Part shown: positions 291-35,400 of the stretch, one piece after another
How the letters are laid out: each line of letters opens with the position of its first letter
Numbering within the stretch: position 1 is the first letter of the stretch
Origin: a virus
Length of the DNA stretch: 64,000 nucleotides
Virus record (IMG/VR): IMGVR_UViG_3300045125_000077
Strand: one strand, 5' to 3'
The notes under the pieces: model-generated
The model's input: only the letters and a program-made list of their open reading frames with translations
Databases searched by the model: none
Told to the model about the DNA's origin: nothing
Position numbers and translations under genes: made by a program

Positions 291-3200
291 CTAAGCGCCA
301 AGTTTACTGTTCCGGCTGGGGTTAAATCGATCTCGTCCCCCCCGAGGCATTATCGGTCCACCTGGTTACGTAGTAAGTGTAGAACTGCCGTCATTTCGTA
401 TACCTATAGTATCTGTTATATAAATACCACCAAGTTGTCGTTGGTTTTGAACCATCCCATACCAGCAACTTGTTTCCACCTGTGTCTCCTACTGAGAATT
501 TTCCATCATTGGCAAGATACCATCCCAGTCTCCAGTATCAGTATGCGGTCATTCCAGCATAAGCGTTACGCAGCACTGCTCAATGTTATATTACCTCCCG
601 TTAGTGTAGTTGCGCCAATTGTCCAGCCGCTGCCGATTGTTCCGGCCAGTTGAGGTTAATGTTTCCGTTAGAACGCAAACTTCCGGAATACATCCACCGC
701 CCATGCTTAGGGTTCCGCCGGCATATTGTATTTCCGCTTATTGTCACCCAGCTTATAGTGCCGCCAGTAATAGGAATCTCCCTGTAATAGACCTCGTAGC
801 GGCAATTTGTGTCCCAGTTATTGTCCCTGCTGCCATATTTGCGGCAGTTGTAGTACCTGCGGCAATTTCAGTGTGTTGCAGTTGTAGCACCCGGCAGGCA
901 ACTCTTCCGGCGGTAATAGACCCTGCTCCACCTCTGCCGGCAGATATAGTTCCGGCAGTTATTGCGCTCGCATTAAGATTTCTTACATACGCCGAATCCA
1001 GATATACTCCACCGCCATCTACCGTGAATGGAACTATTGTTCCAGTTCCATTTGATTGTACAATTTTAAATTCGTCTACTTGTACAATAAATGAGGAAGA
1101 TGTTGATGCATCGGCGGCGAGCCTAAAACCAGCCACTCTGTTTCCAGCAGTTACTTTAACTGTATATTGAGATTTTAAATCTACTATTGAACCTGATATA
1201 GCAGCCGTCGTTGTTTGGCTTGTTGATACACTCGCTGCTAAAGATGAACTATTAATTACAACACTTGAAGATAGCGCTGTTAATAGACTTGCCAAAGAAC
1301 CAGACGCACTTGAGAAAGCAAACGCTATTTGTCCAATACTTGATGCAACATGATGCGCTATCCCAGTAAAGCTGGAAGATATTATAGTTATGGTCTGAGC
1401 AAGTGACGAACTAAAATCTACATTTGTAGTATTTACTTGAGCAATAGATGCCGCCAGAAGAACTGTTTGTACGTATGCTGGACGACAGTGTGGTAATGCT
1501 TTGCGCCAAGGACGAGCTAAACGTGGTGTTGGTCGTATTAGTCTGGGTAATGGAAGACGCCAATGACGCACTGTTGGTACTGACGCTAGCTGACAGAGTG
1601 GTGATGCTCTGCGCCAGAGACGAACTGAACGTGACGTTGGTCGTGTCAGTTCTGGTGATGGACGCAGCCAGCGACGCACTGTTGGTACGTATGCTGGCCG
1701 ACAGTGTGGTTATGCTCTGCGCCAACGAGGAACTAAACGTGACGTTGGTCGTGTCAGTTCTGGTAATAGACGCTGCCAGAGAAGAACTGTTGGTACTGAC
1801 GCTAGCCGACAACGTGGTGATGCTCTGCGCCAGAGACGGAGCTAAACGTGACGTTGGTCGTATCTGTGCGAGTAATAGACGCCGCTAGTGATGAGCTATT
1901 ACCGTCGATGCGCGACGACAGTGTGGTAATGCTTTGCGCCAAGAGACGAGCTAAACGTGGTGTTGGTCGTATTAGTCTGGGTAATGGAAGACGCCAATGA
2001 CGCACTGTTGGTACTGACGCTAGCTGACAGAGTGGTGATGCTTTGCGCCAGAGACGAACTGAACGTGACGTTGGTCGTGTCAGTTCTGGTGATGGACGCA
2101 GCCAGCGACGCACTGTTGGTACGTATGCTGGCCGATAGTGTGGTTATGCTCTGCGCCAACGAGGAACTAAACGTGACGTTGGTCGTGTCAGTTCTTCGGT
2201 AACAGACGCTGCCAGAGAAGAACTGTTGGTACTGACGCTAGCCGACAACGTGGTGATGCTCTGCGCCAGAGACGAGCTAAACGTGACGTTGGTCGTATCT
2301 GTGCGAGTAATAGACGCCGCTAGTGATGAGCTATTACCGTCGATGCGCGACGACAGTGTGGTAATGCTTTGCGCCAGAGATGAGCTAAACGTAGTGTTGG
2401 TCGTATTAGTCTGGGTAATGGAAGACGCCAATGACGCACTGTTGGTACTGACGCTAGCTGACAGAGTGGTGATGCTTTGCGCCAGAGACGAACTAAACGT
2501 GACGTTGGTCGTGTCAGTTCTGGTAATAGACGCTGCCAGAGAAGAACTGTTGGTACTGACGCTAGCCGACAACGTGGTGATGCTCTGCGCCAGAGACGAG
2601 CTAAACGTGACGTTGGTCGTATCTGTGCGAGTAATAGACGCCGCTAGTGATGAGCTATTACCGTCGATGCGCGACGACAGTGTGGTAATGCTTTGCGCCA
2701 GAGATGAGCTAAACGTAGTGTTGGTCGTATTAGTCTGGGTAATGGAAGACGCCAATGACGCACTGTTGGTACTGACGCTAGCTGACAGAGTGGTGATGCT
2801 TTGCGCCAGAGACGAACTAAACGTGACGTTGGTCGTGTCAGTTCTGGTAATAGACGCTGCCAGAGAAGAACTGTTGGTACTGACGCTAGCCGACAACGTG
2901 GTGATGCTCTGCGCCAGAGACGAGCTAAACGTGACGTTGGTCGTATCTGTGCGAGTAATAGACGCCGCTAGTGATGAGCTATTACCGTCGATGCGCGACG
3001 ACAGTGTGGTAATGCTTTGCGCCAGAGGATGAGCTAAACGTGGTGTTGGTCGTATTAGTCTGGGTAATGGAAGACGCCAATGACGCACTGTTGGTACTGA
3101 CGCTAGCTGACAGAGTGGTGATGCTTTGCGCCAGAGACGAACTAAACGTGACGTTGGTCGTGTCAGTTCTGGTAATAGACGCTGCCAGAGAAGAACTGTT

Positions 3201-6200
3201 GGTACTGACGCTAGCCGACAACGTGGTGATGCTCTGCGCCAGAGACGAGCTAAACGTGACGTTGGTCGTATCTGTGCGAGTAATAGACGCCGCTAGTGAT
3301 GAGCTATTACCGTCGATGCGCGACGACAGTGTGGTAATGCTTTGCGCCAGAGATGAGCTAAACGTAGTGTTGGTCGTATTAGTCTGGGTAATGGAAGACG
3401 CCAATGACGCACTGTTGGTACTGACGCTAGCTGACAGAGTGGTGATGCTTTGCGCCAGAGACGAGCTAAACGTGACGTTGGTCGTGTCAGTTCTGGTAAT
3501 AGACGCTGCCAGAGAAGAACTGTTGGTACTGACGCTAGCCGACAACGTGGTGATGCTCTGCGCCAGAGACGAGCTAAACGTGACGTTGGTCGTATCTGTG
3601 CGAGTAATAGACGCCGCTAGTGATGAGCTATTACCGTCGATGCGCGACGACAGTGTGGTAATGCTTTGCGCCAGAGATGAGCTAAACGTAGTGTTGGTCG
3701 TATTAGTCTGGGTAATGGAAGACGCCAATGACGCACTGTTGGTACTGACGCTAGCTGACAGAGTGGTGATGCTTTGCGCCAGAGACGAACTAAACGTGAC
3801 GTTGGTCGTGTCAGTTCTGGTAATAGACGCTGCCAGAGAAGAACTGTTGGTACTGACGCTAGCCGACAACGTGGTGATGCTCTGCGCCAGAGACGAGCTA
3901 AACGTGACGTTGGTCGTATCTGTGCGAGTAATAGACGCCGCTAGTGATGAGCTATTACCGTCGATGCGCGACGACAGTGTGGTAATGCTTTGCGCCAGAG
4001 ATGAGCTAAACGTAGTGTTGGTCGTATTAGTCTGGGTAATGGAAGACGCCAATGACGCACTGTTGGTACTGACGCTAGCTGACAGAGTGGTGATGCTTTG
4101 CGCCAGAGACGAACTAAACGTGACGTTGGTCGTGTCAGTTCTGGTAATAGACGCTGCCAGAGAAGAACTGTTGGTACTGACGCTAGCCGACAACGTGGTG
4201 ATGCTCTGCGCCAGAGACGAGCTAAACGTGACGTTGGTCGTATCTGTGCGAGTAATAGACGCCGCTAGTGATGAGCTATTACCGTCGATGCGCGACGACA
4301 GTGTGGTAATGCTTTGCGCCAGAGATGAGCTAAACGTAGTGTTGGTCGTATTAGTCTGGGTAATGGAAGACGCCAATGACGCACTGTTGGTACTGACGCT
4401 AGCTGACAGAGTGGTGATGCTTTGCGCCAGAGACGAGCTAAACGTGACGTTGGTCGTGTCAGTTCTGGTAATAGACGCTGCCAGAGAAGAACTGTTGGTA
4501 CTGACGCTAGCCGACAACGTGGTGATGCTCTGCGCCAGAGACGAGCTAAACGTGACGTTGGTCGTATCTGTGCGAGTAATAGACGCCGCTAGTGATGAGC
4601 TATTACCGTCGATGCGCGACGACAGTGTGGTAATGCTTTGCGCCAGAGATGAGCTAAACGTAGTGTTGGTCGTATTAGTCTGGGTAATGGAAGACGCCAA
4701 TGACGCACTGTTGGTACTGACGCTAGCTGACAGAGTGGTGATGCTTTGCGCCAGAGACGAACTAAACGTGACGTTGGTCGTGTCAGTTCTGGTAATAGAC
4801 GCTGCCAGAGAAGAACTGTTGGTACTGACGCTAGCCGACAACGTGGTGATGCTCTGCGCCAGAGACGAGCTAAACGTGACGTTGGTCGTATCTGTGCGAG
4901 TAATAGACGCCGCTAGTGATGAGCTATTACCGTCGATGCGCGACGACAGTGTGGTAATGCTTTGCGCCAGAGATGAGCTAAACGTAGTGTTGGTCGTATT
5001 AGTCTGGGTAATGGAAGACGCCAATGACGCACTGTTGGTACTGACGCTAGCTGACAGAGTGGTGATGCTTTGCGCCAGAGACGAACTAAACGTGACGTTG
5101 GTCGTGTCAGTTCTGGTAATAGACGCTGCCAGAGAAGAACTGTTGGTACTGACGCTAGCCGACAACGTGGTGATGCTCTGCGCCAGAGACGAGCTAAACG
5201 TGACGTTGGTCGTATCTGTGCGAGTAATAGACGCCGCTAGTGATGAGCTATTACCGTCGATGCGCGACGACAGTGTGGTAATGCTTTGCGCCAGAGATGA
5301 GCTAAACGTAGTGTTGGTCGTATTAGTCTGGGTAATGGAAGACGCCAATGACGCACTGTTGGTACTGACGCTAGCTGACAGAGTGGTGATGCTTTGCGCC
5401 AGAGACGAACTAAACGTGACGTTGGTCGTGTCAGTTCTGGTAATAGACGCTGCCAGAGAAGAACTGTTGGTACTGACGCTAGCCGACAACGTGGTGATGC
5501 TCTGCGCCAACGAGGAGCTAAACGTGACGTTGGTCGTATCTGTGCGAGTAATAGACGCCGCTAGTGATGAGCTATTACCGTCGATGCGCGACGACAGTGT
5601 GGTAATGCTTTGCGCCAAGGACGAGCTAAACGTGGTGTTGGTCGTATTAGTCTGGGTAATGGAAGACGCCAATGACGCACTGTTGGTACTGACGCTAGCT
5701 GACAGAGTGGTGATGCTTTGCGCCAGAGACGAACTGAACGTGACGTTGGTCGTGTCAGTTCTGGTGATGGACGCAGCCAGCGACGCACTGTTGGTACGTA
5801 TGCTGGCCGATAGTGTGGTTATGCTCTGCGCCAACGAGGAACTAAACGTGACGTTGGTCGTGTCAGTTCTGGTAATAGACGCTGCCAGAGAAGAACTGTT
5901 GGTACTGACGCTAGCCGACAACGTGGTGATGCTCTGCGCCAGAGACGAGCTAAACGTGACGTTGGTCGTATCTGTGCGAGTAATAGACGCCGCTAGTGAT
6001 GAGCTATTACCGTCGATGCGCGACGACAGTGTGGTAATGCTTTGCGCCAGAGATGAGCTAAACGTAGTGTTGGTCGTATTAGTCTGGGTAATGGAAGACG
6101 CCAATGACGCACTGTTGGTACTGACGCTAGCTGACAGAGTGGTGATGCTTTGCGCCAGAGACGAACTAAACGTGACGTTGGTCGTGTCAGTTCTGGTAAT

Positions 6201-9200
6201 AGACGCTGCCAGAGAAGAACTGTTGGTACTGACGCTAGCCGACAACGTGGTGATGCTCTGCGCCAGAGACGAGCTAAACGTGACGTTGGTCGTATCTGTG
6301 CGAGTAATAGACGCCGCTAGTGATGAGCTATTACCGTCGATGCGCGACGACAGTGTGGTAATGCTTTGCGCCAAGGACGAGCTAAACGTGGTGTTGGTCG
6401 TATTAGTCTGGGTAATGGAAGACGCCAATGACGCACTGTTGGTACTGACGCTAGCTGACAGAGTGGTGATGCTTTGCGCCAGAGAAGAGCTAAATGTGAC
6501 GTTGGTCGTGTCAGTTCTGGTAATAGACGCTGCCAGAGAAGAACTGTTGGTACTGACGCTAGCCGACAACGTGGTGATGCTCTGCGCCAGAGACGAGCTA
6601 AACGTGACGTTGGTCGTATCTGTGCGAGTAATAGACGCCGCTAGTGATGAGCTATTACCGTCGATGCGCGACGACAGTGTGGTAATGCTTTGCGCCAAGG
6701 ACGAGCTAAACGTGGTGTTGGTCGTATTAGTCTGGGTAATGGAAGACGCCAATGACGCACTGTTGGTACTGACGCTAGCTGACAGAGTGGTGATGCTTTG
6801 AGCCAGAGACGAGCTAAACGTGACGTTTGTCGTATTGGTCTGGGTGATGGATGCCGCCAGTGACGAGCTATTACCGTCGATGCGCGACGACAGTGTGGTA
6901 ATGCTTTGCGCCAGAGAAGAGCTAAATGTGACGTTGGTCGTGTCAGTTCTGGTAATAGATGCTGCCAGAGAAGAACTGTTGGTGCTGACGCTAGCCGACA
7001 ACGTGGTGATGCTCTGAGCCAGAGACGAGCTAAACGTGACGTTGGTCGTATTGGTCTGGGTGATGGATGCCGCCAGTGACGCACTATTTATATCGACTCT
7101 AGACGATAGTGCAGTAATAGTTTGTGCCAAAGATGAACTGAAATTTACCTGAGTAGTAGTTGCGTTCGTTATTGTTGATGATAATGATGCACTATTATAT
7201 TAATACTGGAAGATAATGCAGTTACCCTAGTCGCTAGAGAAGAACTAAACGTACTAAATACAGTGTCTGTAGAAGTTATAGAAGACGCAAAAGAAGCGCT
7301 GGATAAATTGATACTGAAGATAATGTAGTAGTTCTTGTTGCCAAAGAAGAACTAAATGTAGTTTGTATATCTTCTACAGTTTTTATAGATGCCGCCAAAG
7401 AAGAACTGTTCGTAGTAACTCTAGAATCTAATTGAGTTGTTCTTGAAGCAAGAGATGATGAAGTATTTGTTGCGGCAAGTTCTATTGTTGTTATAGATGC
7501 AGCCAATGAAGAACTATCTATAAAAATTGCGCTCGCGGATATTGAAGCAATTCTCTGCGCAAGAGACGAACTTGCTGTACTAAAAGAAACATCTGTACTC
7601 GTTATTGCTGCTGAAAGTGAACTACTAAACGTTATAAAACTTGAAGAAATTGTAGTAGATTCGGAAGCTAATGATGCGCTAGCAGTAGTAAACACAGTGT
7701 CTACATTTGTTATAGATGCAGCAATTGAAGCACTTGTAAAATTAATACTAGATGATAGCGTCGTTGAACGTTGTGCTAATGAAGAACTTGTCGTAGTAAA
7801 TACAGTATCTACACTTGTTATAGATGCCGCTAGTGATGCACTATTTGTTTTAACACTTGAAGAGAGTATAGTAATACTTTGCGCCAGAGACGAGCTAAAC
7901 GTGACGTTTGTAGTATCAGTTCTGGTGATAGACGCTGCCAGAGAAGAACTGTTGGTGCTGACGCTAGCTGACAGAGTGGTGATGCTCTGAGCCAGAGACG
8001 AGCTAAACGTGACGTTTGTCGTATTGGTCTGGGTGATGGATGCCGCCAGTGACGAGCTATTACCGTCGATACGCGACGACAGTGTGGTAATGCTTTGCGC
8101 CAGAGATGAGCTAAACGCAGTGTTGGTCGTATTAGTCTGGGTAATGGAAGACGCCAATGACGCACTGTTGGTACTGACGCTAGCTGACAGAGTGGTGATG
8201 CTTTGCGCCAGAGACGAACCAAACGTGACGTTGGTCGTGTCAGTTCTGGTGATAGATGCTGCCAGAGAAGAACTGTTGGTGCTGACGCTAGCCGACAACG
8301 TGGTGATGTTTCTGAGCCAGAGACGAGCTAAACGTGACGTTTGTCGTATTGGTCTGGGTGATGGATGCCGCCAGTGACGAGCTATTACCGTCGATACGCG
8401 ACGACAGTGTGGTAATGCTTTGCGCCAAGGACGAGCTAAACGTGGTGTTGGTCGTGTTGGTCTGGGTAATTGAAGACGCCAGTGACGAGCTGTTTGTGCT
8501 GACGCTAGCTGACAGTGTGGTAATACTTTGTGCCAGACGACGAGCTAAACGTTACGCTGGTCGTGTCAGTTCTGGTGATGGACGCAGCCAGTGACGCACT
8601 TATTGGTACGTATGCTGGCCGATAGTGTGGTAATACTTTGCGCCAGAGACGAGCTAAACGTGACGTTTGTCGTATCAGTTCTGGTGATAGATGCTGCCAG
8701 AGAAGAACTGTTGGTGCTGACGCTAGCCGACAGAGTGGTGATGCTTTGCGCCAGAGACGAGCTAAACGTGACGCTAGTCGTATTGGTCTGGGTGATGGAT
8801 GCCGCCAGTGACGAGCTATTACCGTCGATACGCGACGACATGTGTGGTAATGCTTTGCGCCAAGGACGAGCTAAACGTGGTGTTGGTCGTGTTGGTCTGG
8901 GTAATGGAAGACGCCAGTGACGCGCTGTTGGTGCTGACGCTGGCCGACAGAGTGGTGATGCTTTGCGCCAGAGACGAGCTAAACGTGACGTTTGTCGTAT
9001 CAGTTCTGGTGATAGACGCTGCCAGAGAAGAACTGTTTGTGCTGACGCTAGCTGATAGAGTGGTGATGCTTTGCGCCAGAGACGAGCTAAACGTGACGCT
9101 AGTCGTATTGGTCTGGGTAATGGATGCCGCCAGTGACGAGCTATTACCGTCGATACGCGACGACAGTGTGGTAATGCTTTGCGCCAAGGACGAGCTAAAC

Positions 9201-12200
9201 GTGGTGTTGGTCGTGTTGGTCTGGGTAATTGGAAGACGCCAGTGACGAACTGTTGGTACTTACACTGGACGACAACGTAGTAATACTTTGCGCTAAAGAT
9301 GAACTAAATGTAACACTCGTCGTGTTAACTTGAGTTATCGATGCTGCTAAAGATGCGCTATTAGTGCGTATACTAGAAGATAAATTGGTGAAAGTCTGGG
9401 CTAAGGATGAACTAAAATTGGTATTAGTAGTATTTACCTGAGTAATAGACGATGCCACGATGCACTATTAGTATCTACTCTGGACGATAAAGTCGATACG
9501 GTTTGTGCCAACGATGAACTAAAATTAGTATTTGTCGTACTCGTTTGACTAATAGATGCGGCCAAAGATGCACTATTTGTAACTACACTAGAAGAAAGAA
9601 TAGTCACCCTTTTGAGCAAGAGAAGAACTAAAGTCTGAACTGGGCGGTGTCAATAGATACTATAAATGACGCCAAAGAAGCACTGGTATTACTTACAGAA
9701 GAATTTAATGTAGTAAATCTTTCGGAGAATGAAGATGAATTATTTATTACAGCTTGTTCTATTGTTGTTATAGAAGCTGCAAGTGAAGAACTGTCTATGA
9801 ATATGGCACTGGCTGAAATAGATGCTATTCTTTGTGCTAGTGAAGAACTTGCGTTTGTAAACGCAAAATCTGTACTTGTAACCGCAGCAGATAAAGAACT
9901 GCTAAATGTTAAAAAAGCTAGAAGACAGCGTTGTGGTTCTAGACGCCAAAGAAGAACTTGCCGTAACAAATACAGTATCTACATTGGTTATAGATGCAGC
10001 AATTGAAGCACTTGTAAAATTAATGCTTGCGGACAACGTAGTTGATATTTGCGCTAAAGAGGAAGAAGCATCAGTAAATGTAGTTTGAACATTTGTTATA
10101 GACGCAGCAAGTGAAGCGCTGTTTGTTCTAACACTAGACGATAGTGTGGTAATACTTTGCGCCAGAGACGAGCTAAACGTTACGCTAGTCGTATTGGTCT
10201 GGGTAATGGATGCCGCCAGTGACGAGCTATTACCGTCGATACGCGACGACAGTGTGGTAATGCTTTGCGCCAAGGACGAGCTAAACGTTGTGTTGGTCGT
10301 ATTAGTCTGGGTAATGGAAGACGCCAGTGACGAGCTGTTTGTTGCTGACGCTAGCTGACAGAGTGGTGATGCTTTGCGCCAGAGACGAGCTAAACGTGAC
10401 GCTGGTCGTATTGGTCTGGGTGATGGATGCCGCCAGTGACGCACTATTGGTACGTATGCTGGCTGATAGTGTGGTAATACTTTGCGCCAGAGACGAGCTA
10501 AATGTGACGCTTGTCGTACAGTTCTGGTAATAGATGCTGCCAGAGAAGAACTGTTGGTACTGACGCTGGCTGGATAGTGTGGTGATGCTTTGTGCCAACG
10601 AGGAACTGAACGTTACGCTGGTCGTATTGGTCTGGGTAATGGATGCCGCCAGTGACGAGCTATTACCGTCGATACGCGACGACAGTGTGGTAATGCTTTG
10701 CGCCAAGGACGAGCTAAACGTTGTGTTGGTCGTATTAGTCTGGGTAATGGAAGACGCCAGTGACGAGCTGTTTGTGCTGACGCTAGCTGACAGAGTGGTG
10801 ATGCTTTGCGCCAGAGACGAGCTAAACGTGACGCTGGTCGTATTGGTCTGGGTGATGGATGCCGCCAGTGACGCACTATTGGTACGTATGCTGGCTGATA
10901 GTGTGGTAATACTTTGCGCCAGAGACGAGCTAAATGTGACGCTTGTCGTGTCGGTTCTGGTAATAGACGCCGCCAGAGAAGAACTGTTGGTGCTGACGCT
11001 AGCTGACAGAGTGGTGATGCTTTGTGCCAACGAGGAACTGAACGTTACGCTAGTCGTATTGGTCTGGGTAATGGATGCCGCCAGTGACGAGCTATTACCG
11101 TCGATACGCGACGACAGTGTGGTAATGCTTTGCGCCAGAGACGAGCTAAACGTTGTGTTGGTCGTATTAGTCTGGGTAATGGAAGACGCCAGTGACGAGC
11201 TGTTTGTACTGACGCTGGCTGATAGTGTGGTGATGCTTTGTGCCAACGAGGAACTGAACGTTACGCTAGTCGTATTGGTCTGGGTAATGGACGCCGCCAG
11301 TGATGAGCTATTGCCGTCGATACGCGACGACAATGTGGTAATGCTTTGCGCCAGAGATGAGCTAAACGTGGTGTTGGTCGTGTTGGTCTGGGTAATTGAA
11401 GACGCCAGTGACGAGCTGTTTGTACTGACGCTGGCTGATAGTGTGGTGATGCTTTGTGCCAACGAGGAGCTAAACGTGACGCTGGTCGTGTTGGTCTGTG
11501 TAATGGACGCCGCCAGTGACGAGCTATTACCGTCGATACGCGACGACAGTGTGGTAATGCTTTGCGCCAAGGACGAGCTAAACGTTGTGTTGGTCGTATT
11601 AGTCTGGGTAATTGAAGACGCCAGTGACGAGCTGTTTGTGCTGACGCTAGCTGACAGTGTGGTAATACTTTGTGCCAACGAGGAGCTAAACGTTACGCTG
11701 GTCGTGTCAGTTCTGGTGATGGACGCAGCCAGTGACGCACTATTGGTACGTATGCTGGCCGATAGTGTGGTAATACTTTGCGCCAGAGACGAGCTAAATG
11801 TGACGCTTGTAGTGTTGGTCTGGGTGATGGATGCCGCTAGTGACGAACTATTACCGTCGATACGCGACGACAGTGTGGTAATGCTTTGCGCCAAGGACGA
11901 GCTAAACGTTGTGTTGGTCGTATTAGTCTGGGTAATGGAAGACGCCAGTGACGCACTGTTGGTACTAATACTGGAAGAAAGAACAGTGACTCTTTGTGCC
12001 AACGAAGAACTATAATCACTATTTACCGTACTTATTTCCGTCACAAATGCGGATATAGACGCACTGGAATTATTAATTGATGAATTTAATATAGTAGTTC
12101 TATCCGCGAACGAAGAAGAATTGGTTACTATCGCCTGTTCTAATGTAGTAATAGACGCCGCAAGTGAAGAACTATCTATAAAAATTGCGCTTGCAGATAT

Positions 12201-14651
12201 AGAAGCCAGTCTTGACGCTAATGATGCACTTGCATTAGTGAATGCAAAATCTGTATATGTTACTGCCGCAGATAATGAACTGCTAAACGTGTCAAAATTT
12301 GCATTAAGTTCATTCGACCGTTGGGCTAATGAAGAACTGGTGTTTGAAAATACAGTATCTACACTTGAAATTGTTGCAGAAATAGAAGCACTTGCTAGAT
12401 TTATACTAGAAGATAATGTAGTAGACCTTGTAGCAAGAGAAGAACTTAAATCTGTAAAGGTTTGTTCCACAGTGCTTATTGTAGCCAACAGTGAAGCACT
12501 GGTATTTACAAAACTTGAAGAAAGAATAGTTGCTCTTGATGCCAATGAAGAACTAAATGTTACAAATGTTTCTTCGGTCGTGGATATAGATGCTGCCAAT
12601 GAAGCACTTTGAGAATTAACATTAGAATCAAGAATAGAAACTCTGGAAGCAAGGGATGAAGAATTATCTACCAAAGTTTGCTCAATCGTGGTTATAGAAG
12701 CAGCAAGTGAGGCACTATCTATGAATACCGCGCTGGACGAAAGTTGGGACAGGCGTTGTGCCAAAGATGAGCTTGCATTAGTAAATGCAAAATCTGCGCT
12801 GGTTATTACCGAAGAAAACGACGAACTGAATTCATATACACTAGCAGATACTATTGTAGTTCTAGAAGCAAAGGATGATGACAGTGTAGTTATTGCTGTC
12901 TCATTTTCTGATATAAATGAAGAAAACGAAGAACTTACTCCATTTATACTAGAATTGATTGATACCAACCTTTGCGCCAAAGAAGCTGATGTGTCAGTGA
13001 GTGTGGTGGAAGATTCAGATATTGACGCCGCGATAGAAGCACTTGCATTTTCTATATTTGAAGACAACGTAGAACTTCTTTGTGCAGAGAAGAAGAAGTA
13101 GTTACAAATGTTTCATCCAATGAAGCGATTGTCGCAGAAATTGAAGAGCTCGCGGTAGTAATATCAGATGATAAAGTTGATATTTTTGTGCAAGAGACGC
13201 CGATGCGTCTGTGAAAGTAGTATCAGCGGTGGAAATTCTAGACGCTAATGATTGGCTGGTATTTGAAAAACTTGCTTCTAGAAGCTGCGTTCTTTCCACC
13301 AAAGAAGAGGAAACTGTAACAAATGCCGTATCTGCATTTTGTATTAATGCCGCAATCGATGCGCTATTTTCATTGAAATTTACCGCAGCAGCTATTGTAG
13401 TTATTCTTCCAGACAGAGATGACGATGCGTCAACAAATGTAATGTTATTGTCTGATATAGAAGATGCAAGAGACGAGCTTGCGTTAGAAAGTGAACTTCT
13501 AAGCTCATCTATTGTTAGTGCAGAAGATGCGCTGGTTGTAGTAAAAGAATCTCTTACAGATTTTACGCTAGAATCAAGAGAACCGGATACATTTGTAAAT
13601 GACGTGGACAATTCCACAATTTGGGTAGCCGCCGAAGAACTAAAAGTTGTCAGCGTCGATGAAAGTTGAGTTATTGTTGCCGCCAACGATGCGCTATCCA
13701 AAGAACCAGACCCAGCTATATACGAAGAAAGGTTTTCTACTTTTGCTGCCAAAGAAGAACTTGCGTTTATAAAAGTATTATATGTTGTATTTATTGATGC
13801 AGCGAGCGACGCACTATTAAAATTCGCAGTAGAACCAATTGTATCAATTCGAGTTGCAATAGATTCGCTGGTAGTAGTTAATGTAGCTTCTATAGTTTTT
13901 ATAGAACTTGCCAATGAACTACTATTTGATGTTAAAGACGACCCAAGGCTGTTTATATTTGCCGCAAACGACGAAGAACTATCCGAAAACGCCCCGTAAA
14001 CAGAAGTTATATATGCCGCAGTAGATGCGGAGTTCTGCAATAGTGTTTCACTAAATGCTCCATAACTCGCAGATAAAGATGCAGATACTTGATTCAACCT
14101 ATTTACAACTGAAGAAGATACGCTAGTCAATGAGCTATTCAACGAGTTTACTCTCGTACTAAGAGAACTCGATGCAGCAGTTAATACTCTTACATTAGTA
14201 GAAATGGAAGAAGAAAATAAACCAAGTTCTTGTCTTACTACATCAATCGATTCTGTTGGAAGAGATATTATTGGTCCACCACCTTGTTGTATTGTAAGCG
14301 TGCCATTATTTTGGTCAGTCAATTTAACCGACCCTACATACAAACTCCCAGAAGTAACGTATATATCCCGCCATCTACGAGAAGGGCTACCCAAATCATA
14401 CATGTTGTCAGTTTGGGGAATTATACTCTGATTTACTTGACTTAAATCAATAGAGCCACTTACAAATGAACCACTACCACCAGAGCTTAAATATGGTAAA
14501 CTGGACCACGATGCTGTTCCATTTCCTATTTTAAGTTTTCCGGTATCTAGTTCAAACCCAGCTTCGCCGGATATAAAGTAGGATTTACTGCTGTCCAATT
14601 TGCAGCAGTATCACGCTTTAACTGAATTCTGGAAATTCTAATTGTTGCCAT
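291..14651 (-). CDS. giant tail fibre/tip protein (~4,780 aa, split by indels): Mtd_N-like N-terminus, ~4,300-aa Ser/Thr/Ala repeat coiled coil, DUF1983/TipJ-like C-terminal domain followed by AGTIT-type repeats
   Basis: ATG at 14651 reads MATIRISRIQLKRDTAANWTAVNP, then after a 1-nt shift SGEAGFELDTGKLKIGNGTASWSSLPY (Mtd_N motif). ORFs 13102-14598, 10302-13067, 7276-8298, 2982-7130 and 2144-3088 carry the same repeat. ORF 753-1679 has QYTVKVTAGNRVAGFRLAAD...FIVQVDEFKIV...PFTVDGGGVYLDSAYV (DUF1983-like). The stop at 291 is inferred by hand translation. Confidence 0.8.
1400..13100. repeat. nested coding tandem repeat: 54-bp half unit, 108-bp (36-aa) unit, 324-bp (108-aa) super-unit, interrupted by degenerate AT-richer blocks
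   Basis: Unit SSSLAQSITTLSSRIDGN/SSSLAASITRTDTTNVTF. The 60-nt lines starting at 3301 and 4921 are identical (offset 1620 = 5x324); the same line recurs at 6001 (offset 1080 = 3x324+108). Confidence 0.97.
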
Positions 14652-14663
14652 TTTCTATAAATA

Positions 14664-16900
14664 TCACGTAGACCCAGCATCTCCACCATCTAGAACAATA
14701 TCTATAATTGTTCCACCACCTCCGCCACCGCCTCCACCACCGCCCCTCCACCACCGCCACCTCCACCACCGCCACCGCCTATTACAACAGTAAATGGGAT
14801 ATCGCTGGATACTATACCTAATGGATCTACGAATAATTTTGTTTTTAATGGCATAAATCTTTTATTATAAGCAAATGTATATGAGTTTTTACCATATGCT
14901 AGCCTGTTTTGGGCGTCATATAGTTCCATTTCTATCTCATATAGTTCATTTGGCACCTTTACCGGCAATGGTATTTTGACGCTAAAACTATCAATGGAAT
15001 AATCTATGTTTTGATATGGCTGTATAGAAATATCAGATATATTCCATTCGCCTTTGCTTGGTGCGAGCAATATTGTACCAAATGACTCTTGTTCATTGAA
15101 AAATGATTTTTCATATGCTTCATTAGCACCAAAGTTATATGCACTATCTATATATCCAATCATTTTTTTAGTTGTTCCGCTTATATAATAAGTATATAAT
15201 TTAGCATCATTTGAGTTGTTTGGTCCTGCTTTAACGTTCATACTGAACTTATATAAAGTATTTTGACGCAATCTTATAGGATTACTATCGTGAACTTGAC
15301 CATTTATCAGGTTTTCTTGTGATGCACTATAGTTTGATATATATGGAATATTATTTATGCCAAGATATGATGACGTTGGATATATACCATAGTTTATAAA
15401 CGCATCTGTATTAGCATACCAATATGAGTTATTTAGCAAGTTTGGTGCATAATATGTAAAGTCTCTTGAGCCGGAAAAAGTATTATCTTTGAATATTACA
15501 TAATCAGTTAGTGAAGAATTGTCGGCGTGGCTTATTTTTGCACCATTTATAAGCACTTCATTGCTTTGTGTAAATACACAGCCGCCTTTTATAAACCAAT
15601 GTTTATTTACGTGGAGCATTGTTATAGAAGTATGATGTATTTTCATACAAGGCATTATCAAACTTAGTTGAACGTATAACATTTTCTGCTTCTATAGTTC
15701 CCTGAGACAATAATATTTTTGATTCTGGGCCATTTAAGCTTCTGCCATATATTTTGTAATATGATAAATCTCCGCATAATGTTCTAGCATTGTTGCATTC
15801 AACGTTTAGTACAGAAACAAAATATGTTGAACCGGATGGATCTGCTCGTGGTAAAGATACTGGTATTTGTTTATGGAATATTTCAAATCCACCATCAGAC
15901 AAACTTAGCGCATAAAAATTTTTCTTATGAAATACAGTTTGCTTGGCAGCATCATCTATAACAGTATATCCTTTCAACTGCACAAGATTATTTTTAGCAT
16001 ATGGAGAGTCTTCGTTGGTATTATTGATAAGTTCAGATACCGTAGCAAATGGTATATCAAGTATTATAGATGTTTCATTTACTACACGTTTTATCTTGGA
16101 AATAAAGTCTGTATTTAGCACACCTTGATATTCTACTCTATTATCTCCAAAGTTTGTATAAGTAAATTTTGTTACGGTTGGATTTTTTAGGCGTATACTT
16201 TCGCCCTCCATAGATGCATTGAACTTGTTCCCAGATTTCCAATACAACTGATATATTGCATTTTCAAACTGATAATCATAATCTCCATTCGCATTATTTT
16301 TTGGAGTTATTGCAATAGCGGAAAATGTGCCAGAAGAAAGAGTATATGAACTTGTTGGATATGATGGAAGAGAATATATTTCTGCTTTTGTTCTGATATA
16401 CGGTGAAGTAAAAAATCTAATTTCAGACTCAGTCTTTTTTGTTGTGTCTATCAGTAAATTTCTTGTCCAAGTAACTTCTCCAGTTTCTAATTTGGTGCTG
16501 TCGGACGGAGCACTTGTAAGAGGCAATCTTTGATTTCTGTTTATTTTGTATCCTACATTATTATAATAAGCAACAAGACCAGTATATCCTTCCAAATTTA
16601 GCCCAAGTGCAGTTATTTCTATTCTACCAATACCATTTATTGTTTCTTCTGGTACATTTATATAATACAACTGACCAGTAAGTGTTTGTTCAGAAAATGC
16701 AGAATTGGTTGGTTGAATTATACCAGAAGGTAAAATATTACCTTGAGTATCATATACTCTTACTGTAATAGGAGTATTGGGTATTACATATGGCGTCGTA
16801 TTTAGCGTAAATGAGTTCTTACCTGCTTTTAGTATATCACTAAAATTAGTTAGAAAAAGTAGGTATTAGAGATGTTGTCCGCGTCAAATAGTTGTTCCAT
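14664..16900 (-). CDS. putative virion structural protein with a C-terminal poly-Gly linker (~745 aa, frameshifted)
   Basis: ATG at 16900 (MEQLFDADNIS...) joins ORFs 15603-16670 and 14702-15682; the corrected end reads (G)n-TIIDIVLDGGDAGST*; TATTTATA box upstream. Confidence 0.65.
14713..14780. repeat. (CCN)n tract encoding ~22 Gly on the minus strand
   Basis: ccaccacctccgccaccgcctccaccaccgccc... run visible in the sequence. Confidence 0.9.
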
Positions 16901-16934
16901 AGGTTTTTATATTTCCTATGGTTATAAATATATA

Positions 16935-19900
16935 TTAGACGCTATTATCTATCTTACTGAAGCCGTTTTCCTTCTTTATCTCAAGTTGCTTGTCTACCAT
17001 ATCACGCATGGCATCAAGATGGCTTATTATAATAATAAAATCAAAGTTTCGCTTCAAATAATCAAACAATGCATGCAGCATAGGAATATTATTGCCATCT
17101 AAAGCTGAAAAACCTTCATCTACTACAAGATAGTTTGGTCTTGGTAGATTGCTTATGTTGATGAAGAGCAACTCTAAGTGCCAAACCAGATATGAACTTT
17201 TCCATACCTGAACATAGTTCAAGTGGCCATTTTTTGTCTTCGTATTTGATATATACGTTTACATTTTTGCCGTCTGTTTCTATAGCAATGCTAAACTCAA
17301 CAATATGAGATAATATGCTATTTACTTCTTGCTCAATCTTTTGGAATAGCATCTGATATGATTTGATATGGCACGCCATCCTTGCCAACCGCAGAGATAT
17401 AATACTGATATGCTGCCAAGTCATCTTCATATTGCTGTATGGTAATCAACTGCTTTTCTGTTTCTTTTAGTTGGTCGCCAAATGATATTTTTTTGCTATA
17501 TGCATCAACATATTCTTTTTCTATGTTTTTTAGGCGAGAAGATAATGCCGGATGACTTTATCTTTAGTTCAGATATAACATCTTCTATAGCCTTATTACT
17601 TTCCACAATCTCTTTGGACTTTTCATATAGTTCTATAGAGTTTTGCAGTTCAGTTATGCGAGTTGTGTTTTTATCAAATGCTGACTTTAGATTTGATTTT
17701 TCAAGTTCCTTTTGGATATAAACGCAGTAAGAGTGTTTACAAGTTCTTTTAGTTTTACGCTTTCTTCATACTTGAGCACATATTCAGCATATGTTTCCAT
17801 TTCTGCTTTTACATTTGACAGCGACTCAGATAGTTCTTTTGCTTCTGATTTATCGGCAGCAAGGCTTTCGCGTGTTGCTATAGCATCCTTTACAAAGATA
17901 TTATCGCAGCAAAATCTACAGTTAGGGTCATACTCGTGCTTATCTAAATGAGCCAGCTTTTTTAGCTTTTCATTTACAAGCGTTTTGAGTTTATCCATTT
18001 CATTTTCAATACGCTGCTTGGTTCTGGTCAATGACTGATATTTGTCATTCTTTTCTTTGAGGTCATCTGGAAACTCTTTTAGTTTGTTGGACGCATCAAT
18101 ATATTCTTGTTTCTTGCCAATCGTTTCGTTGTCTATTTTTTCAATATATTCAAGCGTCTGCTTGTTCTTTAGCACAAGAGACATCTCGCTCACGAACAAT
18201 AGGCATTATGTTAGTAGGCACGTTTTCAAGTTTTACAATAGTATCCTTTTTGGCTTCTATCTGAGCATCAATATCGTTCTTGGATATTGCCAGTGCGTCC
18301 TTTTGCTCGTTCAAGTCGTTGAGTTTGGCGTCAAGTAGTTCTATATCGTTCTTGGTTTGACTGATTTTCTTCAAGCCATTTTCCTTGTTGAACAACTTGA
18401 CTGCACCAGATAGTTCCTTGGTTTTGTCGGACGCCAAAGATGCCAACTTATCAAACAAGTTCAAGCCAATGAACTGACTAAGCAGTTCTTTGCGTTCTGT
18501 TTGACCCATATCAATAAAATGAACCTTGATTGCCTTGCAAGGCAAGAGTAGTCAATACAAAGTCGTCATAATCGCCGAGATAATCGCGTATGATTTCGTT
18601 GGTGCTGCGGCGTGCCTCACTATTCAGGCTTACTTTTTCATCGCCGTTCATCTTGTAAAAGTTTACATCAACCTTTACATTGTTCTTTTTGTCTCTCTTA
18701 CCTCACGCTCTATGACATAATGAACGTTGTTGATTTCAAAGGTAAACTTGCCGCTGAATGACATCTTTTGAGAGTTCATTACGTGCGTGGCCTTGAATGC
18801 TCTTGCACTCCTTGTCAAAGACCGTAAAACACAACGCATCCATTAGAGAACCTTGCCGCTGGCATTGGCAGCAAACAATCCATATACATCTTCAAGTTTG
18901 GTAAAATCAAGAATGTTATTTTCGCCATAACTGAACATATTACTGAACTCAAACTTGATTGGCTTCCAGCGAATGTTTCTGGATGTATCATCCTTGGTGA
19001 GCGATGCATTCAGGTCTTTGTTGATTTTATTGACAGCGTCAATAGTTTCGTCATCCATTACATCCACAAACTTCTTTTTCAGATATTCAGATACAATCTT
19101 GTTTTGATAATCTATGTTGCCGATTTGATTTAGGTTTGAGATGTTTTGTGCCTGAGCAACTTTGGTCGCACCATCTGTATCTACTCTTACATAAATCAAG
19201 TCGGTGATTTCATATGTTTTGCGAAGTTCGTTGATTATCTTCTTTACTTCCGTAGCGACACTTTCTTGCAACGCACACGCAGTTTTGGTTTTGCGTGGCA
19301 TGGTAGTGATGTCAGTAATCAGTTTGCCGTCATCAACATCTATCGTAAAATACCCATAGTCGTTTGGTATTTCAATATGAGAATATGTTCTTTGCTTGAT
19401 ATTCCACAATGTAAATCCGTGTCCAAGCAATGCTTCGCCGTGGTTCTGCTGAATAAGAGAACCAGCATATCGTATAATAGGTTTTTCAGTTGCTTTATCA
19501 TAACTTTGTAAATCTTGAATCATATGAATATCACCAAGCATGGCAATATCGTGTCCGTCAAATAGTTCATTAGTAATCGTCTTATCTGATACTGCATATC
19601 CTATATCCGTCTTTGCGTTCAACACACCGCCGTGAAATAACGCAATCTTATCATCAAATGTCATTTTTATCTTCTTGATACATTCTTCATCTTGATGTAT
19701 TTGGTAGGGTCATCAAATACACTCATGTTATTGATTAGTAAGTTGGCGGCACCATACAATCCTGTATTCTTGAGATAAAAAGTTTAGCGTGCTTTAGATT
19801 TTCAACAATGGGAGATATACTATCAAGTCGCGTAACATTTGTCAGCAAGCAGTCGTGATTTCCAGCAATAACAATCGTTGGACGAAGTTCTGCTAATCTA

Positions 19901-20142
19901 TGAAAAACTCGCTGGTAATCTGCACAGCTTCTGGACTCAAATCAACTTTGCTATGAAGTGTGTCGCCAGTATTGATAATCACCGTGCTTTCTGGCGTCTT
20001 TGACTATTTCAGCATACAGCTTCTCAAACGCCTCTCTATATTCTTCGTGGCGTTTTGTAAGACGAATATGTATGTCGGATATATGAACAACATAATCAAC
20101 TTTATCCAGTCCTATATCCAGTTTCTCAAATGTATCTACCAT
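16935..20142 (-). CDS. SbcD/Mre11 (gp47-like) metallophosphoesterase fused to SbcC/Rad50 (gp46-like) ABC-ATPase
   Basis: N-terminal HISDIH, GD and GNHD motifs. ORF 18843-19664 runs unbroken from MLGDIH to FSNMFSYG...ANASGK (Walker A). Central coiled coil with CRFC zinc hook. C-terminal CSGMEKF signature, VVDEGFSALD Walker B and ISH switch. Confidence 0.9.
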
Positions 20143-20146
20143 AAAA

Positions 20147-21140
20147 TTATTTTCCTAATCTTAAGCAGGTTAGTGCCCCAAAGTCAAGCACATCCGTTTG
20201 TTTAATCTGGTTTATAGTTTTTTCAAATCCAAGCACGTTGGGATCTTTGCCTTCTAAACGCACAAGCTTGGCAGTTTTTCCAAGAGATTGTATAAAGTCT
20301 CGCAATCTTGATGGCACTATTCAACGCATCATCGTCTAACACAATATTGACTTCAGGACATTTGCTGGGAAGTTATTGCTGCTTGAAGTTTTTGCTCATT
20401 GTTTTGCCAAATAGTGGTATGGCATTACGCTTCAGTGATATAGCATCGAGCGCACCTTCACATAGATATATTGGATAATCAAAGTCTATCATATTCTCAA
20501 ACCCAATGATATTCTTGTTAAACTCGCTGTTCTTATATTTGTAGCCGTCATCATAATAACTGCGACAACTATAAAAGTTTAAGTTGTTGTCTTTGTCGTA
20601 TGATGGAAATACAAGACGGTCGGCAAATGGACCCTTTGAGCAATATCCAATGTTATATTTACCACAATATCACACAACGATAGTTTGCGTTTCTTGGCAT
20701 AGTTGAACGCGACTTTTATATTCTTCTGCTGCCGTCGTTTTCTGCCAAACTTTTGAAGTCCCAGGCATAAGAAAAAGTGATTCGTGTTTTTCAACTCTCA
20801 ACTTCACCAACTTTGAGTGATAAAATCTTGCTGTCAAACTCTGATAGATTTGGTTTATGCTTACGGCATATCGGTCATTATCCCGTACTTTGTCCAATCA
20901 TATCGGACGTTACGTTCATTCTTAAACAGCCAATATAATCCACGGACCCTTGGCATTACATACCCAGCAGTTCCATTTGTTGGGTTCATCGAGACACACT
21001 TCCATCTTTGTCTTATGATGGTGGCAGCGAGGTTTCAATGATATACTATATTGTTGCCCTTTTGCGTAGCCTGCCAAGTTTCCTTTGAATGCTCTGTTCA
21101 GCAAACCTGGTAAGTTCTGTTTATTTTTTAGTGATGACAT
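20147..21140 (-). CDS. DNA primase (CHC2 zinc finger + TOPRIM), frameshifted
   Basis: CHHHKTKMEV...WNCWVCNAKG zinc finger; hand translation gives YLCEGALDAI...PLFGK...IVLDDDA...KDPNVLG (TOPRIM). Confidence 0.85.
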
Positions 21141-21178
21141 TTACCATATCACTATACAGATAATGGTAAAGTAGTCAA
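21141..21178 (-). promoter_or_regulatory. sigma70-like promoter TTGACT-N16-TATAGT overlapped by inverted repeat TTACCAT-N15-ATGGTAA
   Basis: Directly upstream of the primase ATG; inverted-repeat arms at 21141-21147 and 21163-21169. Confidence 0.55.
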
Positions 21179-21187
21179 ACTATAAAA

Positions 21188-21683
21188 TCAACCCGCCAAA
21201 CTGAGCACTATGGCGTCTCGCACATCTTCCATACGCTTCTCTTCAGTTCCTTTTATTGAGAACGGTCCATTTGGTCATATCATACATCTTTATCAATACT
21301 TTCTTTAACAAACACTTTGGGTTTTACGCCTTTGATTCTGGCGGCTCCAAGTGCCTTTTTACGAGCAGTTTGTGCGTGAATGCTCTCTAGACTCACGCCA
21401 TAATGATTTTCAAGTATATAACCTACCACAGCCTTGTTTTTGACCAGTTTAATAATGACTGCTGCTGAGAAGTACCGCCGCCAGCAAAGCCAAACAAACT
21501 TTCTTCAATCATTATCTTATCAAAACTGTGACCAACCAGAGTTTTTATAATAAGGTCGGCTTTGTCTTGATACTTCTCGAGCATCTGAAATATCAATATA
21601 AGCCACAAGCTAATATTACGCTTGTTTTCTGTTATCGCCCATCCACAAGTAGTTGTGGATAAATCCAATCCCAACACTTTCAT
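21188..21683 (-). CDS. ruvC: RuvC-like Holliday junction resolvase
   Basis: MKVLGLDLSTTTCGWAI; IMIEESLFG; C-terminal EDVRDAIVL carrying the acidic catalytic residues (across frameshifts). Confidence 0.8.
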
Positions 21684-21703
21684 ATAACCATTTTTATAAT
21701 AAA

Positions 21704-22051
21704 TCAACCGTAGTATGCGGTATTGCTGTGACGCAATGTGTTTCTAGCGTAATTTAACGCAGAGTTATTAAATCCGCCGTTTCTAGTAATAAAAGGTATA
21801 AAAGAATTTGGTTGGAATGTGCGAGTATATTGGTTATCAATGTAAGTACGTGTGGACTGGTAAAATGGAGAACCTGCCTTGGCGCTTTCTCCCCATCCAC
21901 GGTCTCCTATATTATTTCTTGGTGCAATAAGATGTGAGCGAATATTTCCATATGCTGATGCACCGAGACGAGCATCCGTGTGTATGGTTCTGTACAATGT
22001 TTCCAGTTTCTCTTGTCCCGAAGGTGTTGCGATTGGTTCTAGTGCTGGCAT
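21704..22051 (-). CDS. hypothetical protein (115 aa)
   Basis: MPALEPIATPSGQEK...YYG*; TATTTATA box 24 nt upstream of the ATG. Confidence 0.6.
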   Translation of the reverse strand: MPALEPIATPSGQEKLETLYRTIHTDARLGASAYGNIRSHLIAPRNNIGDRGWGESAKAGSPFYQSTRTYIDNQYTRTFQPNSFIPFITRNGGFNNSALNYARNTLRHSNTAYYG

Positions 22052-22084
22052 ATATAAATTTCTCCTATTATTTATTATAAATAT

Positions 22085-33443: not shown

Positions 33444-35400
33444 TTATGCTACTCTGCCTACTATATCTTTAGTTGGAAAACGAACCTCAAACACAGATGG
33501 GTCTATAGACGGATATATTACCTTATCTACAGTAGCCTTGGATATATCATACTCATATTGTGAATAATCACCATCTTTTAGCGTCAAGTTCTTTACTTTC
33601 AGTTGAGTTACAGACTGAACGCCGTCTACTTTGGCTATTTCAAGTTCCAACCTACTTAGATTAATAGGCTGACAGAACTTAGTATTGTTTATGTCAAAAT
33701 ATTGCTGCACAAGAGTTAGGCAGTTGGCCAAAACTTCACGCTTATTATAGTTTTTATAAACAATAATGCTAAAATCTACGCCAACATTGATTACATAACC
33801 ATCCAAGATATTAACACTATCTGTAAGCATTCTGTATTGATTTAGGTAATTTTTCAAGTTAGTACGCAATGCTTCGTTGGTAGGTATCAATCGTTGATTG
33901 TTGTCATAACACAATACATACAAGTTGATGGCAAATTGATTATTATTTGAAGGGTCCACTGCATTGACTGTGCCTGGAGCCGAACTTCCAGTTTGAATTG
34001 ATGAAGGTTGTGCTTGTATATTTGCCAAATCCAATTGCGTGTCTGTAACTGCATACACCTTAGCTACAGAACCATATTTTGATGGCATAGCATATGTTCT
34101 CACTTCATAATCTTTCTGTGTCACCGCACGATTTTGAGCAGCAAAATATGCCAATGCATTGTTGCGAATTTCGTCGTTTGTTTCTGCGGATTTACCTCCG
34201 GTTGCGGGCACTGGGTTATTAACTCTCACAGAACGTCGCACTAAATTTGTTAAGAATTAAGTTCCAACAGTCCAAGTTCAGTCAAATCTCCAAAAAATTC
34301 AACAGAGCTTACATTCTTGATGGCATTTGCATTAACATTGCTTTCTATACCACCGCCAACAACATATCTTACTGTCAATGTTGTATTGGATGGTGCCTGC
34401 CCAAATGCTTTTGATGATAGAAAGTTTGATGGGTCGTATGAAATGTTTTCGGCTCTAAATGTCGTTGGCTTGTTTACGGTAAATGCATTTGGTATTATCA
34501 GTTCGTCGTCTTTAATGCTTGTACCAGAACCAAATTCCAAGAATGTAGTATTATCGGCACCTACGCCAGTAACAAAACGTTTTGATGTGCGAAGATATCT
34601 TAACAAAAATGGTGTAGTATCTCTGTATGCGGAAAGCGTTACATCATTTTTATAAATGTTCTCATAATCCACGGGAACCAAATCCTGTGCGAGATAATCC
34701 GTCTCGTGCCATCTATTTCCGTCCGAATCATACACGTCTAAAACTTCTATAACATTTGTATCATCCAAATACACTTTAAAAAACGGAATTGGGTCAGTTA
34801 CGGTTATGTTTTTTGTTAATATTCTTCCAGAAAATGCATCAACGTTTTTCTTCAATACAAAAAATTCTGGCTGTCCTGCGGCATTTCTTTGAAATACTGA
34901 AATTTCTAATGGGTCGTTTTTAGTGTCCACGGTAAAATCAACCGGAGAATTAGTAATAAATGTTATATTGCTATCACTCGTAGATGTCATTCCGGGCTTT
35001 ATTATCTGAGCATAGTTCAAGTCTGGAACTATTTCGCCAGCGTCGTCGGTTTTTGCAGGTACGAGTTGATAAACATCTAATCTCGTGACAGAAGGTATTG
35101 TAACTTTAGTCTTATATCCTACAGATTTTGCCGCATCAATGATGTTCTTTCTTTCTTCCGAATTTACGAGCATAGATTCTTTGAATTGGTAATCTATATA
35201 GTACGACATCACGTCTCCAACATATGCCACCATTTCCATGAACATCATGCCGGTAGACGCCTCGCTAAAATCTTTATATGTATTTGGATAATATGTTTTG
35301 GCAAATTCCATCAAAGATTGCTTTAACTGAGAAAATCTTTGTTTAGATACTTTATATCTTTCTTTTCTGGTTTGAATGATTTTGGTGTATCTAATATCAT
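33444..35400 (-). CDS. baseplate wedge subunit (T4 gp6 / baseplate J-like)
   Basis: KYLNKDFSQLKQSLMEFAKTYYPNTYKDFSEASTGMMFMEMVAYVGDVMSYYID; ATGG..AETNDEIR...AQNRAVTQKDY; one frameshift near 34245. Confidence 0.9.

Follow-up and report, generated by a model that had tools for sequence, protein, structure and literature searches.

The closest known counterparts of the locus treated here are the J-like central fibres and the F-type pyocin fibres (25vf, 9ze4_N; PMC13455828; 10.64898/2026.01.28.702463), in which a coiled-coil shaft precedes a PF09327-type tip region. In the F7 pyocin fibre, a homologous shaft of 163 residues is a trimeric coiled coil that can convert into a β-prism, and AlphaFold yields either state for related fibres (10.64898/2026.01.28.702463). 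Fibre length is a further variable: in Pseudomonas tailocins, the killing range is correlated with haplotypes of tail-fibre length (10.1101/2023.04.17.536465). The present analysis concerns a 64,000-nucleotide stretch of viral DNA (IMG/VR record IMGVR_UViG_3300045125_000077), called the window from here on, and a giant gene on its minus strand that carries a long tandem array of 108-bp units. We consider it probable (roughly 0.75) that this array is the shaft-coding part of one giant tail-fibre gene, in an uncultivated phage with a myovirus-type baseplate, and that it has been shaped by recent unequal recombination of its units.

Like the J-like and F-type pyocin fibres, the window gene encodes a shaft followed by a PF09327-type tip region; its array matches their coiled-coil shaft in profile comparisons, and both arrange small and hydrophobic residues similarly in the core. 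With the fold-switching fibres it shares the combination of a coiled-coil-type periodicity with β predictions by AlphaFold. However, the shaft would comprise ~3,500–4,300 residues, i.e., ~20–25 times the length of the F7 pyocin shaft, and it is rich in Ser and Thr, whereas the J-like and pyocin fibres are rich in Ala, Glu, and Arg. The latter are tail-tip proteins with hub and FNIII domains, while the window gene has an Mtd_N-type side-fibre anchor and neither hub nor FNIII domains. In addition, the F7-type fibre belongs to a non-contractile tail, whereas the window phage possesses a myovirus-type (T4 gp6-like) baseplate wedge.

At the DNA level, the array can be compared to higher-order repeats of the alpha-satellite type, which likewise consist of near-identical super-units with 20–30% divergent members and diverged edges, and whose period and copy number are also lineage-specific. 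The window array differs from them in being protein-coding and in lying inside a phage structural gene. A literature search found no paper linking higher-order repeats to phage tail fibres.

Gram-positive serine-rich repeat proteins (SRRPs) were considered at first sight, as they also combine long, very Ser-rich tandem repeats with an AT-rich genome. However, the window gene is found in a phage and has tail-fibre termini, and it showed no features of secretion or of anchoring to a cell wall; phage context and fibre termini led to the rejection of a Gram-positive serine-rich adhesin. Among cultured phages, structural or fibre proteins of T4-like cyanophages that have an Mtd_N-type N-terminus (e.g., those of Synechococcus phages S-H38, S-WAM1, and syn9) are 60–62% identical over the first ~48 residues. 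Nothing beyond this 48-residue N-terminal module matches any cultured phage, and the diverged repeat region is unmatched in 50,697 phage records.

The fibre gene and its repeat array

The gene starts with an ATG at position 14651 that yields MATIRISRIQLKRDT..., a start shared with an intact open reading frame (ORF) of the related contig L002. The initial annotation had called the product a phage fibre, and both termini agree with this call. The intact L002 ortholog matches PF18454 (Mtd_N) with 54.4 bits (cut-off 26.3), and its residues 2–60 are matched by many PHROG tail-fibre families; the Mtd_N match is weak in the window itself because of a frameshift near 14568. The C-terminus, a lambda-J-like tail-tip domain, matches PF09327 (Phage_Tail_Tip) with 33 bits (cut-off 22) as well as phrog_2589 and phrog_31 (central tail fiber J); in the PDB, the F2-pyocin fibre and J-like tip proteins match it weakly by sequence. 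The anatomy of the gene is the following, GC3 being the G+C content of third codon positions and R, S, I, and A the unit types described below:

14651 to at least 756, probably to ~290, minus strand: giant tail-fibre gene of ~4,780 codons, broken by at least 20 frameshifts
14209–14651, minus strand: N-terminal anchor of the Mtd_N type (PF18454 and PHROG tail-fibre families)
11907–14208, minus strand: Ser/Thr-rich diverged 18-residue repeats with AT-rich codons (GC3 0.25–0.26) and a hydrophobic period of 3.62
10178–11906, minus strand: block I, 16–17 units of 108 bp, types R, S, I, and A, GC3 0.62
9417–10177, minus strand: diverged linker between blocks I and II, which recurs near 12287 and 7629
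7792–9416, minus strand: block II, ~15 units arranged as R S A R S I A R S A R S
7143–7791, minus strand: diverged linker between blocks II and III, GC3 0.14
1416–7142, minus strand: block III, 53 units
2282–6386, minus strand: homogenised core of block III, a repeated R-S-A super-unit of 324 bp, 0–3 differences per unit
5739–5846, minus strand: first I-type unit of block III (SASIRTNSAS), identical to the copy at 2171–2064
2064–2171, minus strand: second I-type unit of block III, within an S-I-A-R-S segment at 2281–1738
1630–1737, minus strand: third I-type unit of block III, with 1 difference
756–1415, minus strand: last diverged repeats, then the tail-tip domain (PF09327, phrog_2589, phrog_31)

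The array had initially been thought to end at 7020. Tandem Repeats Finder (TRF) detects a single array at 1443–11966, with periods of 108 (97 copies) and 324 (32 copies), and a unit-by-unit parse of the minus strand gives 98 units; the array of about 97 units of 108 bp covers 1416–11906. Diverged 18-residue repeats continue from there to ~14200, and the peptide repeat (FSSSLAQSITTLS... / NS.SLAASIT...) can be traced on the minus strand from ~14200 to ~1400 through three reading frames. The G+C content of the array is 52%, that of the rest of the window ~36%. Of the three levels that had been described (54, 108, and 324 bp), the two longer ones hold as DNA repeats, but the 54-bp level is a period of the protein only (18 residues): TRF gives it just 56–63% matches, and the two halves of a 108-bp unit differ at 28–29 of 54 nucleotides.

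Every step in the homogenised blocks is of 108 bp, in line with the proposal that all steps are multiples of 18 residues; this rule does not extend to the diverged part, in which units of 14, 19, 20, 22, and 29 residues are also present. Recurring diverged AT-rich linkers carry the motif FSSSLSAAVT.TDFAFTN (at 12287, 9906, and 7629). The order of units in block I is R I A R A R A R S I A R S I A R.

Unit types and homogenisation of block III

The units can be divided into four types by their peptide signatures, namely R (SSRIDG), S (SASVSTNSSS...TRTDTTNVT), I (SASIRTNSAS), and A (SASVSTNSAS...QTNTTNTT). From 6386 to 2282, three DNA variants follow one another in a fixed cycle and recur as identical 108-mers, SSRIDG ten times, SASVSTNSSS eleven times, and SASVSTNSAS eight times plus two, so that the cycle with unchanging synonymous codons noticed in the initial annotation is confirmed. 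The super-units from 5306 to 2390 differ by 0–1 substitution per 324 bp, whereas R, S, and A differ pairwise at 21–32 of 108 nucleotides, mostly at synonymous sites (9–15 synonymous codon changes). Identity between super-units is thus far above that of the units within one super-unit. Since most unit differences are synonymous, the array peptide is under purifying selection.

Divergence climbs toward both edges of block III: the differences per unit are 27, 4, 12, 3, 3, 1, 3, 3, 0... at the 5′ edge and ...0, 3, 0, 2, 2, 1, 1, 3, 28 at the 3′ edge. The few variant sites of the core recur at the same positions across copies (222 T/C, 321 T/C, and 9/12/13), which marks them as variants common to several repeats and not as random errors. 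Blocks I and II are not homogenised, their same-type units being 6–19 nucleotides apart, while different unit types are 18–32 nucleotides apart.

The I type had been regarded as a fourth variant newly inserted as single units at ~5760, ~2090, and ~1670. The three sites are correct (5846–5739, 2171–2064, and 1737–1630), but the unit is no novelty of block III, as I units are found in all three blocks, those of blocks I and II being 11–12 nucleotides from the block III copy. Because blocks III and I both end in (R S I A)(R S I A) R, the I type is an ancestral component of the cycle R-(S)-(I)-A, and the recently amplified R-S-A super-unit is the form without I. The S-I-A-R-S segment at 5954–5415 matches the one at 2281–1738, 34 units away, at 537 of 540 positions, and the pair represents a larger duplication yet.

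Related contigs and the history of the array

The N-terminal third of the protein was compared with viral contigs, and a single metagenome scan was added; seven close relatives and one distant match were obtained. These relatives, from viral and metagenome collections, have amino-acid identities of 92% (L001 and L002), 87% (L007 and L008), and 75% (L003, L004, and L009), and their flanking DNA is ~84% identical and syntenic. In L002, the ortholog is uninterrupted for 1662 residues, at which point the contig ends. All seven contigs end inside the fibre gene and all but L001 and L009 do so at repeated sequence. For instance, the last 213 bp of L002 are identical to the sequence 864 bp upstream (contig end, L002 13826–14902), and the last 117 bp of L007 and the last 107 bp of L008 to the sequence 216 bp upstream (L007 12602–12934; L008 2846–3168). 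That these independent Illumina-type contigs end at exact repeats indicates that exact super-unit identity is a trait of the gene family.

Other searches added little. A C-terminal query gave one distant match alone (29% identity), an exact DNA pattern search matched only the L001 contig, and searches for proteins of 2420–5000 residues, or of near length, with this repeat found no close relative. The window ORF products are absent from a collection of 15 billion proteins. As a practical warning, every short-read viral contig of the lineage breaks off in the fibre gene and the sole spanning contig is error-ridden; the public viral contigs of the lineage are systematically truncated in this gene.

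The number of repeats differs between the window and its relatives, a comparison that had been suggested at the outset. Between the common flanks YSSSLAQRVTVLSSSI... and ...NSASLAASITNVQTTFTD, block I has 16–17 units in the window and 4–5 in L002. The super-unit period also depends on the lineage, being 324 bp in the window, 864 bp in L002, and 216 bp in L007 and L008. The single linker of L002 is orthologous to the linker between blocks II and III (both contain IKTVEDIQTT and NATTTQ.N), whereas the linker between blocks I and II is a hybrid of that linker and the segment preceding block I. Linker and block II together form a module of ~2.3 kb that is missing from L002 and that probably arose by recombination between diverged repeats. 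The last block of L002 is homogenised to SASVNT / ISTVNTTNVT, a peptide variant present in no window unit; its units are 0–25 nucleotides from each other and 18–28 from any window unit.

Unequal recombination or gene conversion, which had been proposed as recent, is well supported as the process shaping the array: comparison of the sequences reveals identical super-units, divergent members, decay at the edges, and lineage-specific periods. As to the mechanism, which we infer here, as we do the fold and the physical length of the fibre below, the unit types R, S, I, and A are all old and follow one another as R-(S)-(I)-A. In block III, a single R-S-A super-unit of 324 bp would recently have been multiplied by slippage during replication or by unequal homologous recombination among the units; the same process would also have duplicated the 2.3-kb linker-plus-block module and given rise to the different periods and unit numbers of related phages. 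As whole 36-residue units would be gained or lost, frame and structural register would be kept, and each unit would change the length of the fibre by ~5 nm if the shaft is a coiled coil. The locus is a clean natural case of higher-order tandem-repeat dynamics in a phage coding gene, in which each event alters a dimension of the virion. The support for length tuning is confined to a difference between lineages. A contingency (phase-variable) locus was discarded, because the 108-bp units always keep the frame and the frameshifts are sequencing errors.

Frameshifts and quality of the contig

The reading frame of the fibre gene changes at least 20 times, each break being due to one inserted or deleted base. 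Broken units differ from the nearest intact unit mostly by +1 indels in otherwise identical sequence. The indel rate is ~3.5 per kb in blocks I and II and ~3 per kb across the contig, and a comparison of 9.2 kb of unique DNA with the intact ORFs of L002 shows 40 gaps whose length is not divisible by three. At 12004–24014 of the window, genes with an intact counterpart in L002 (SbcCD-like, 1068 residues; unknown, 745 residues; FG-GAP, 640 residues) are split into many frames. Because these neighbouring unique genes are broken at an equal rate relative to L002, the frameshifts are attributed to sequencing errors, and real pseudogenisation or programmed frameshifting was rejected. The window contig is thus a noisy long-read-type consensus, whose pervasive frameshifts affect any ORF-based reading. 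Some errors are hidden within seemingly intact ORFs: in the unit 10503–10610, two compensating indels change the peptide to QRQYQQFFSGSIYYQNC for 17 residues before the frame is restored.

Fold of the shaft

Hydrophobic residues recur with a dominant period of 3.60–3.62, both in the homogenised repeats and in the two diverged parts; the spectrum has its second harmonic, aliased, at 2.25 and lacks power at 2.0. This period, as well as profile matches to coiled-coil shafts, is consistent with the idea that 18 residues correspond to five helical turns. The array profile matches 9ze4_N, the central straight fibre J (E 1.6e-6), and residues 981–1073 of the F2-pyocin fibre 25vf (E 1.4e-3), both matches being weak and affected by biased composition. 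Below threshold, the Pfam and Atlas neighbours all belong to helical coiled-coil families (the ESM Atlas leads are sub-0.9), and a whole-library search with a query of 324 residues gave 208 matches at 19–51% identity to tail fibres and generic coiled-coil proteins. The best whole-library match to the repeat, P0018 (2910 residues), is a non-phage-looking protein with a coiled-coil repeat of 35–36 residues of the LQQDISTLQSQLD type; this resemblance is probably an analogous periodicity rather than homology.

A three-stranded α-helical coiled coil with an 18-residue, 5-turn period is the most likely structure of the shaft, and we regard a coiled coil as its rather likely ground state. The rise of a coiled coil is 0.148 nm per residue. 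The predicted lengths are ~5.3 nm for a unit, ~16 nm for a super-unit, and ~520 nm for the 97-unit array, to be compared with ~90 nm for the array as a meander of 18-residue strands. Should the copy number prove correct, the fibre would rank with the longest ones predicted, with an array of ~0.5 µm as a coiled coil. The pattern SxSxxMxxLxS, published for the fold-switching shaft (10.64898/2026.01.28.702463), fits in its forward orientation once per 36-residue unit (S4-L-A-Q-S-I9-T-T-L12-S-A14), with only ~2-fold enrichment over shuffles; in the second half-unit, Thr occupies the Leu/Ile position of the pattern.

A capacity of the shaft to switch folds is a lead, not a finding. In its most elaborate form, a half-micrometre coiled-coil "fishing line", made of the fold-switching sequence type of the F7-pyocin central fibre, would turn, once triggered by the receptor, into a β-prism ~five times shorter and so reel the virion in, and the gain or loss of 36-residue units by recombination, with a GC3 footprint, would set its reach. 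Such a scenario is very improbable; if true, it would amount to a retractable phage fibre of evolvable length.

GC3 contrast within the gene

Within this one gene, GC3 is 0.58–0.67 in the homogenised blocks versus 0.14–0.28 in the diverged repeats and linkers, the value for other genes being 0.27–0.36. The same contrast is present in L002 (12600–14902). Ser codons change from mostly TCT in the diverged repeats to an even use of AGC, TCG, TCT, and AGT in the homogenised ones, while the Ser plus Thr content is similar. The rise in GC3 may be the footprint of a GC-biased conversion linked to recombination; selection on codon use and an old horizontal origin are alternatives. No paper on GC-biased conversion in phage repeats was found in a literature search. 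As the rise is limited to the homogenised blocks and is seen in two lineages, it offers a way of testing whether recombination brings a GC bias in phages.

Alternative explanations

Several observations weigh against a recently recombined, coiled-coil fibre shaft. The 4.1 kb from 7142 to 3039 contain zero indels where ~12 would be expected (P ~1e-5 locally, ~1e-3 for the whole window), which suggests a read pile-up, repeat collapse, or register mixing, and therefore the exact identity and the copy number in 7142–3039 are unsafe. No relative spans its whole array, and total copy numbers are not comparable. The fibre gene adjoins replication and recombination genes and does not lie inside a tight tail module. 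Finally, AlphaFold2 monomer runs, one with a single sequence and the other with a 13-row alignment of repeat registers, both gave all-β meanders, with a best predicted local distance difference test score (pLDDT) of 80–81. The strand lengths of the two disagree (~15 versus 31–34 residues), the other four models of each run have pLDDT values of 50–68, and a Foldseek search of the PDB found no solved analogue of the β models (template modelling score, TM, below 0.25).

The indel-free run bears directly on whether consensus building, by collapse, expansion, or register mixing, created the near-perfect identity and/or the ~12 identical super-units. Such an artefact would account for 4.1 kb free of indels in a contig whose other parts have ~3 per kb and a longest intact ORF of ~1.4 kb, and for a core with no private substitutions. 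However, the unit types stay distinct and keep their shared variant sites, and identical units at 3038–2172 still have indels, so that repetition alone is no consensus cleaner; moreover, the short-read assemblies of the relatives stop at exact repeats of 107–213 bp, i.e., exact super-unit identity is real in the gene family. The polishing artefact against which the initial annotation had warned is a live concern for this contig. We rate it as unlikely, and treat as provisional both the precise number of copies in the window and the identity of its core to the last base. If recent unequal recombination is accepted, the question is whether its outcome is selected, homogeneity being kept since frequent gain and loss of units provides a standing population of fibre reaches, a form of bet-hedging. 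The numbers of units and modules do differ between relatives whose flanking DNA is ~84% identical, block-level steps are all of whole 36-residue units, the super-unit period is lineage-dependent, and the length haplotypes of the tailocins mentioned above correlate with killing range. Nevertheless, the copy number of any long tandem array is expected to drift under neutrality, blocks I and II have not been homogenised, and the array has neither a recombinase nor a site dedicated to it, so that selected length tuning is an unlikely explanation.

With respect to the fold, the Ser plus Thr fraction of the repeats (0.49–0.54) and the two all-β runs would suit an extended Ser/Thr fibre that is β-structured and/or heavily O-glycosylated, ~five times shorter per residue. 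A hydrophobic period of 3.6 and not 2 speaks against it, as do β models that are inconsistent with each other and match no solved fold, neighbours that are all helical, and profile matches to solved coiled-coil shafts; we consider this fibre improbable and retain the coiled coil. The base composition of the blocks could also have another source. Tail-fibre genes are known to be mosaic, and the GC3 steps are sharp at block borders, as would be expected if GC-rich blocks, younger than their AT-rich flanks, had been acquired from a GC-richer phage with no GC bias linked to recombination. Yet the contrast occurs in two lineages with different lineage-specific unit variants, AT-rich linkers sit between the GC-rich blocks, and the four unit types differ mostly synonymously while all being rich in GC3. 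Horizontal acquisition is for these reasons quite unlikely.

Neighbouring genes

A T4 gp6-like baseplate wedge is encoded at 33444–35314, split by an error at 34241/34250. No tRNA genes are present in the window. Upstream of the fibre gene there are genes for an unknown 745-residue protein, an SbcCD-like nuclease, and a primase. The nuclease, two genes upstream of the fibre, is a fused SbcD-SbcC-like (Mre11/Rad50-type) protein (window 16938–20142; L002 4426–7632), and the primase lies at ~20150–21140. That a recombination nuclease adjoins a gene shaped by recombination may be a coincidence. At the 3′ end of the 745-residue gene, before the fibre gene, L001 and L002 carry a short Gly-codon tandem repeat, (GGTGGAGGT)n, of ~70 bp (L001 and L002 9787–9856).

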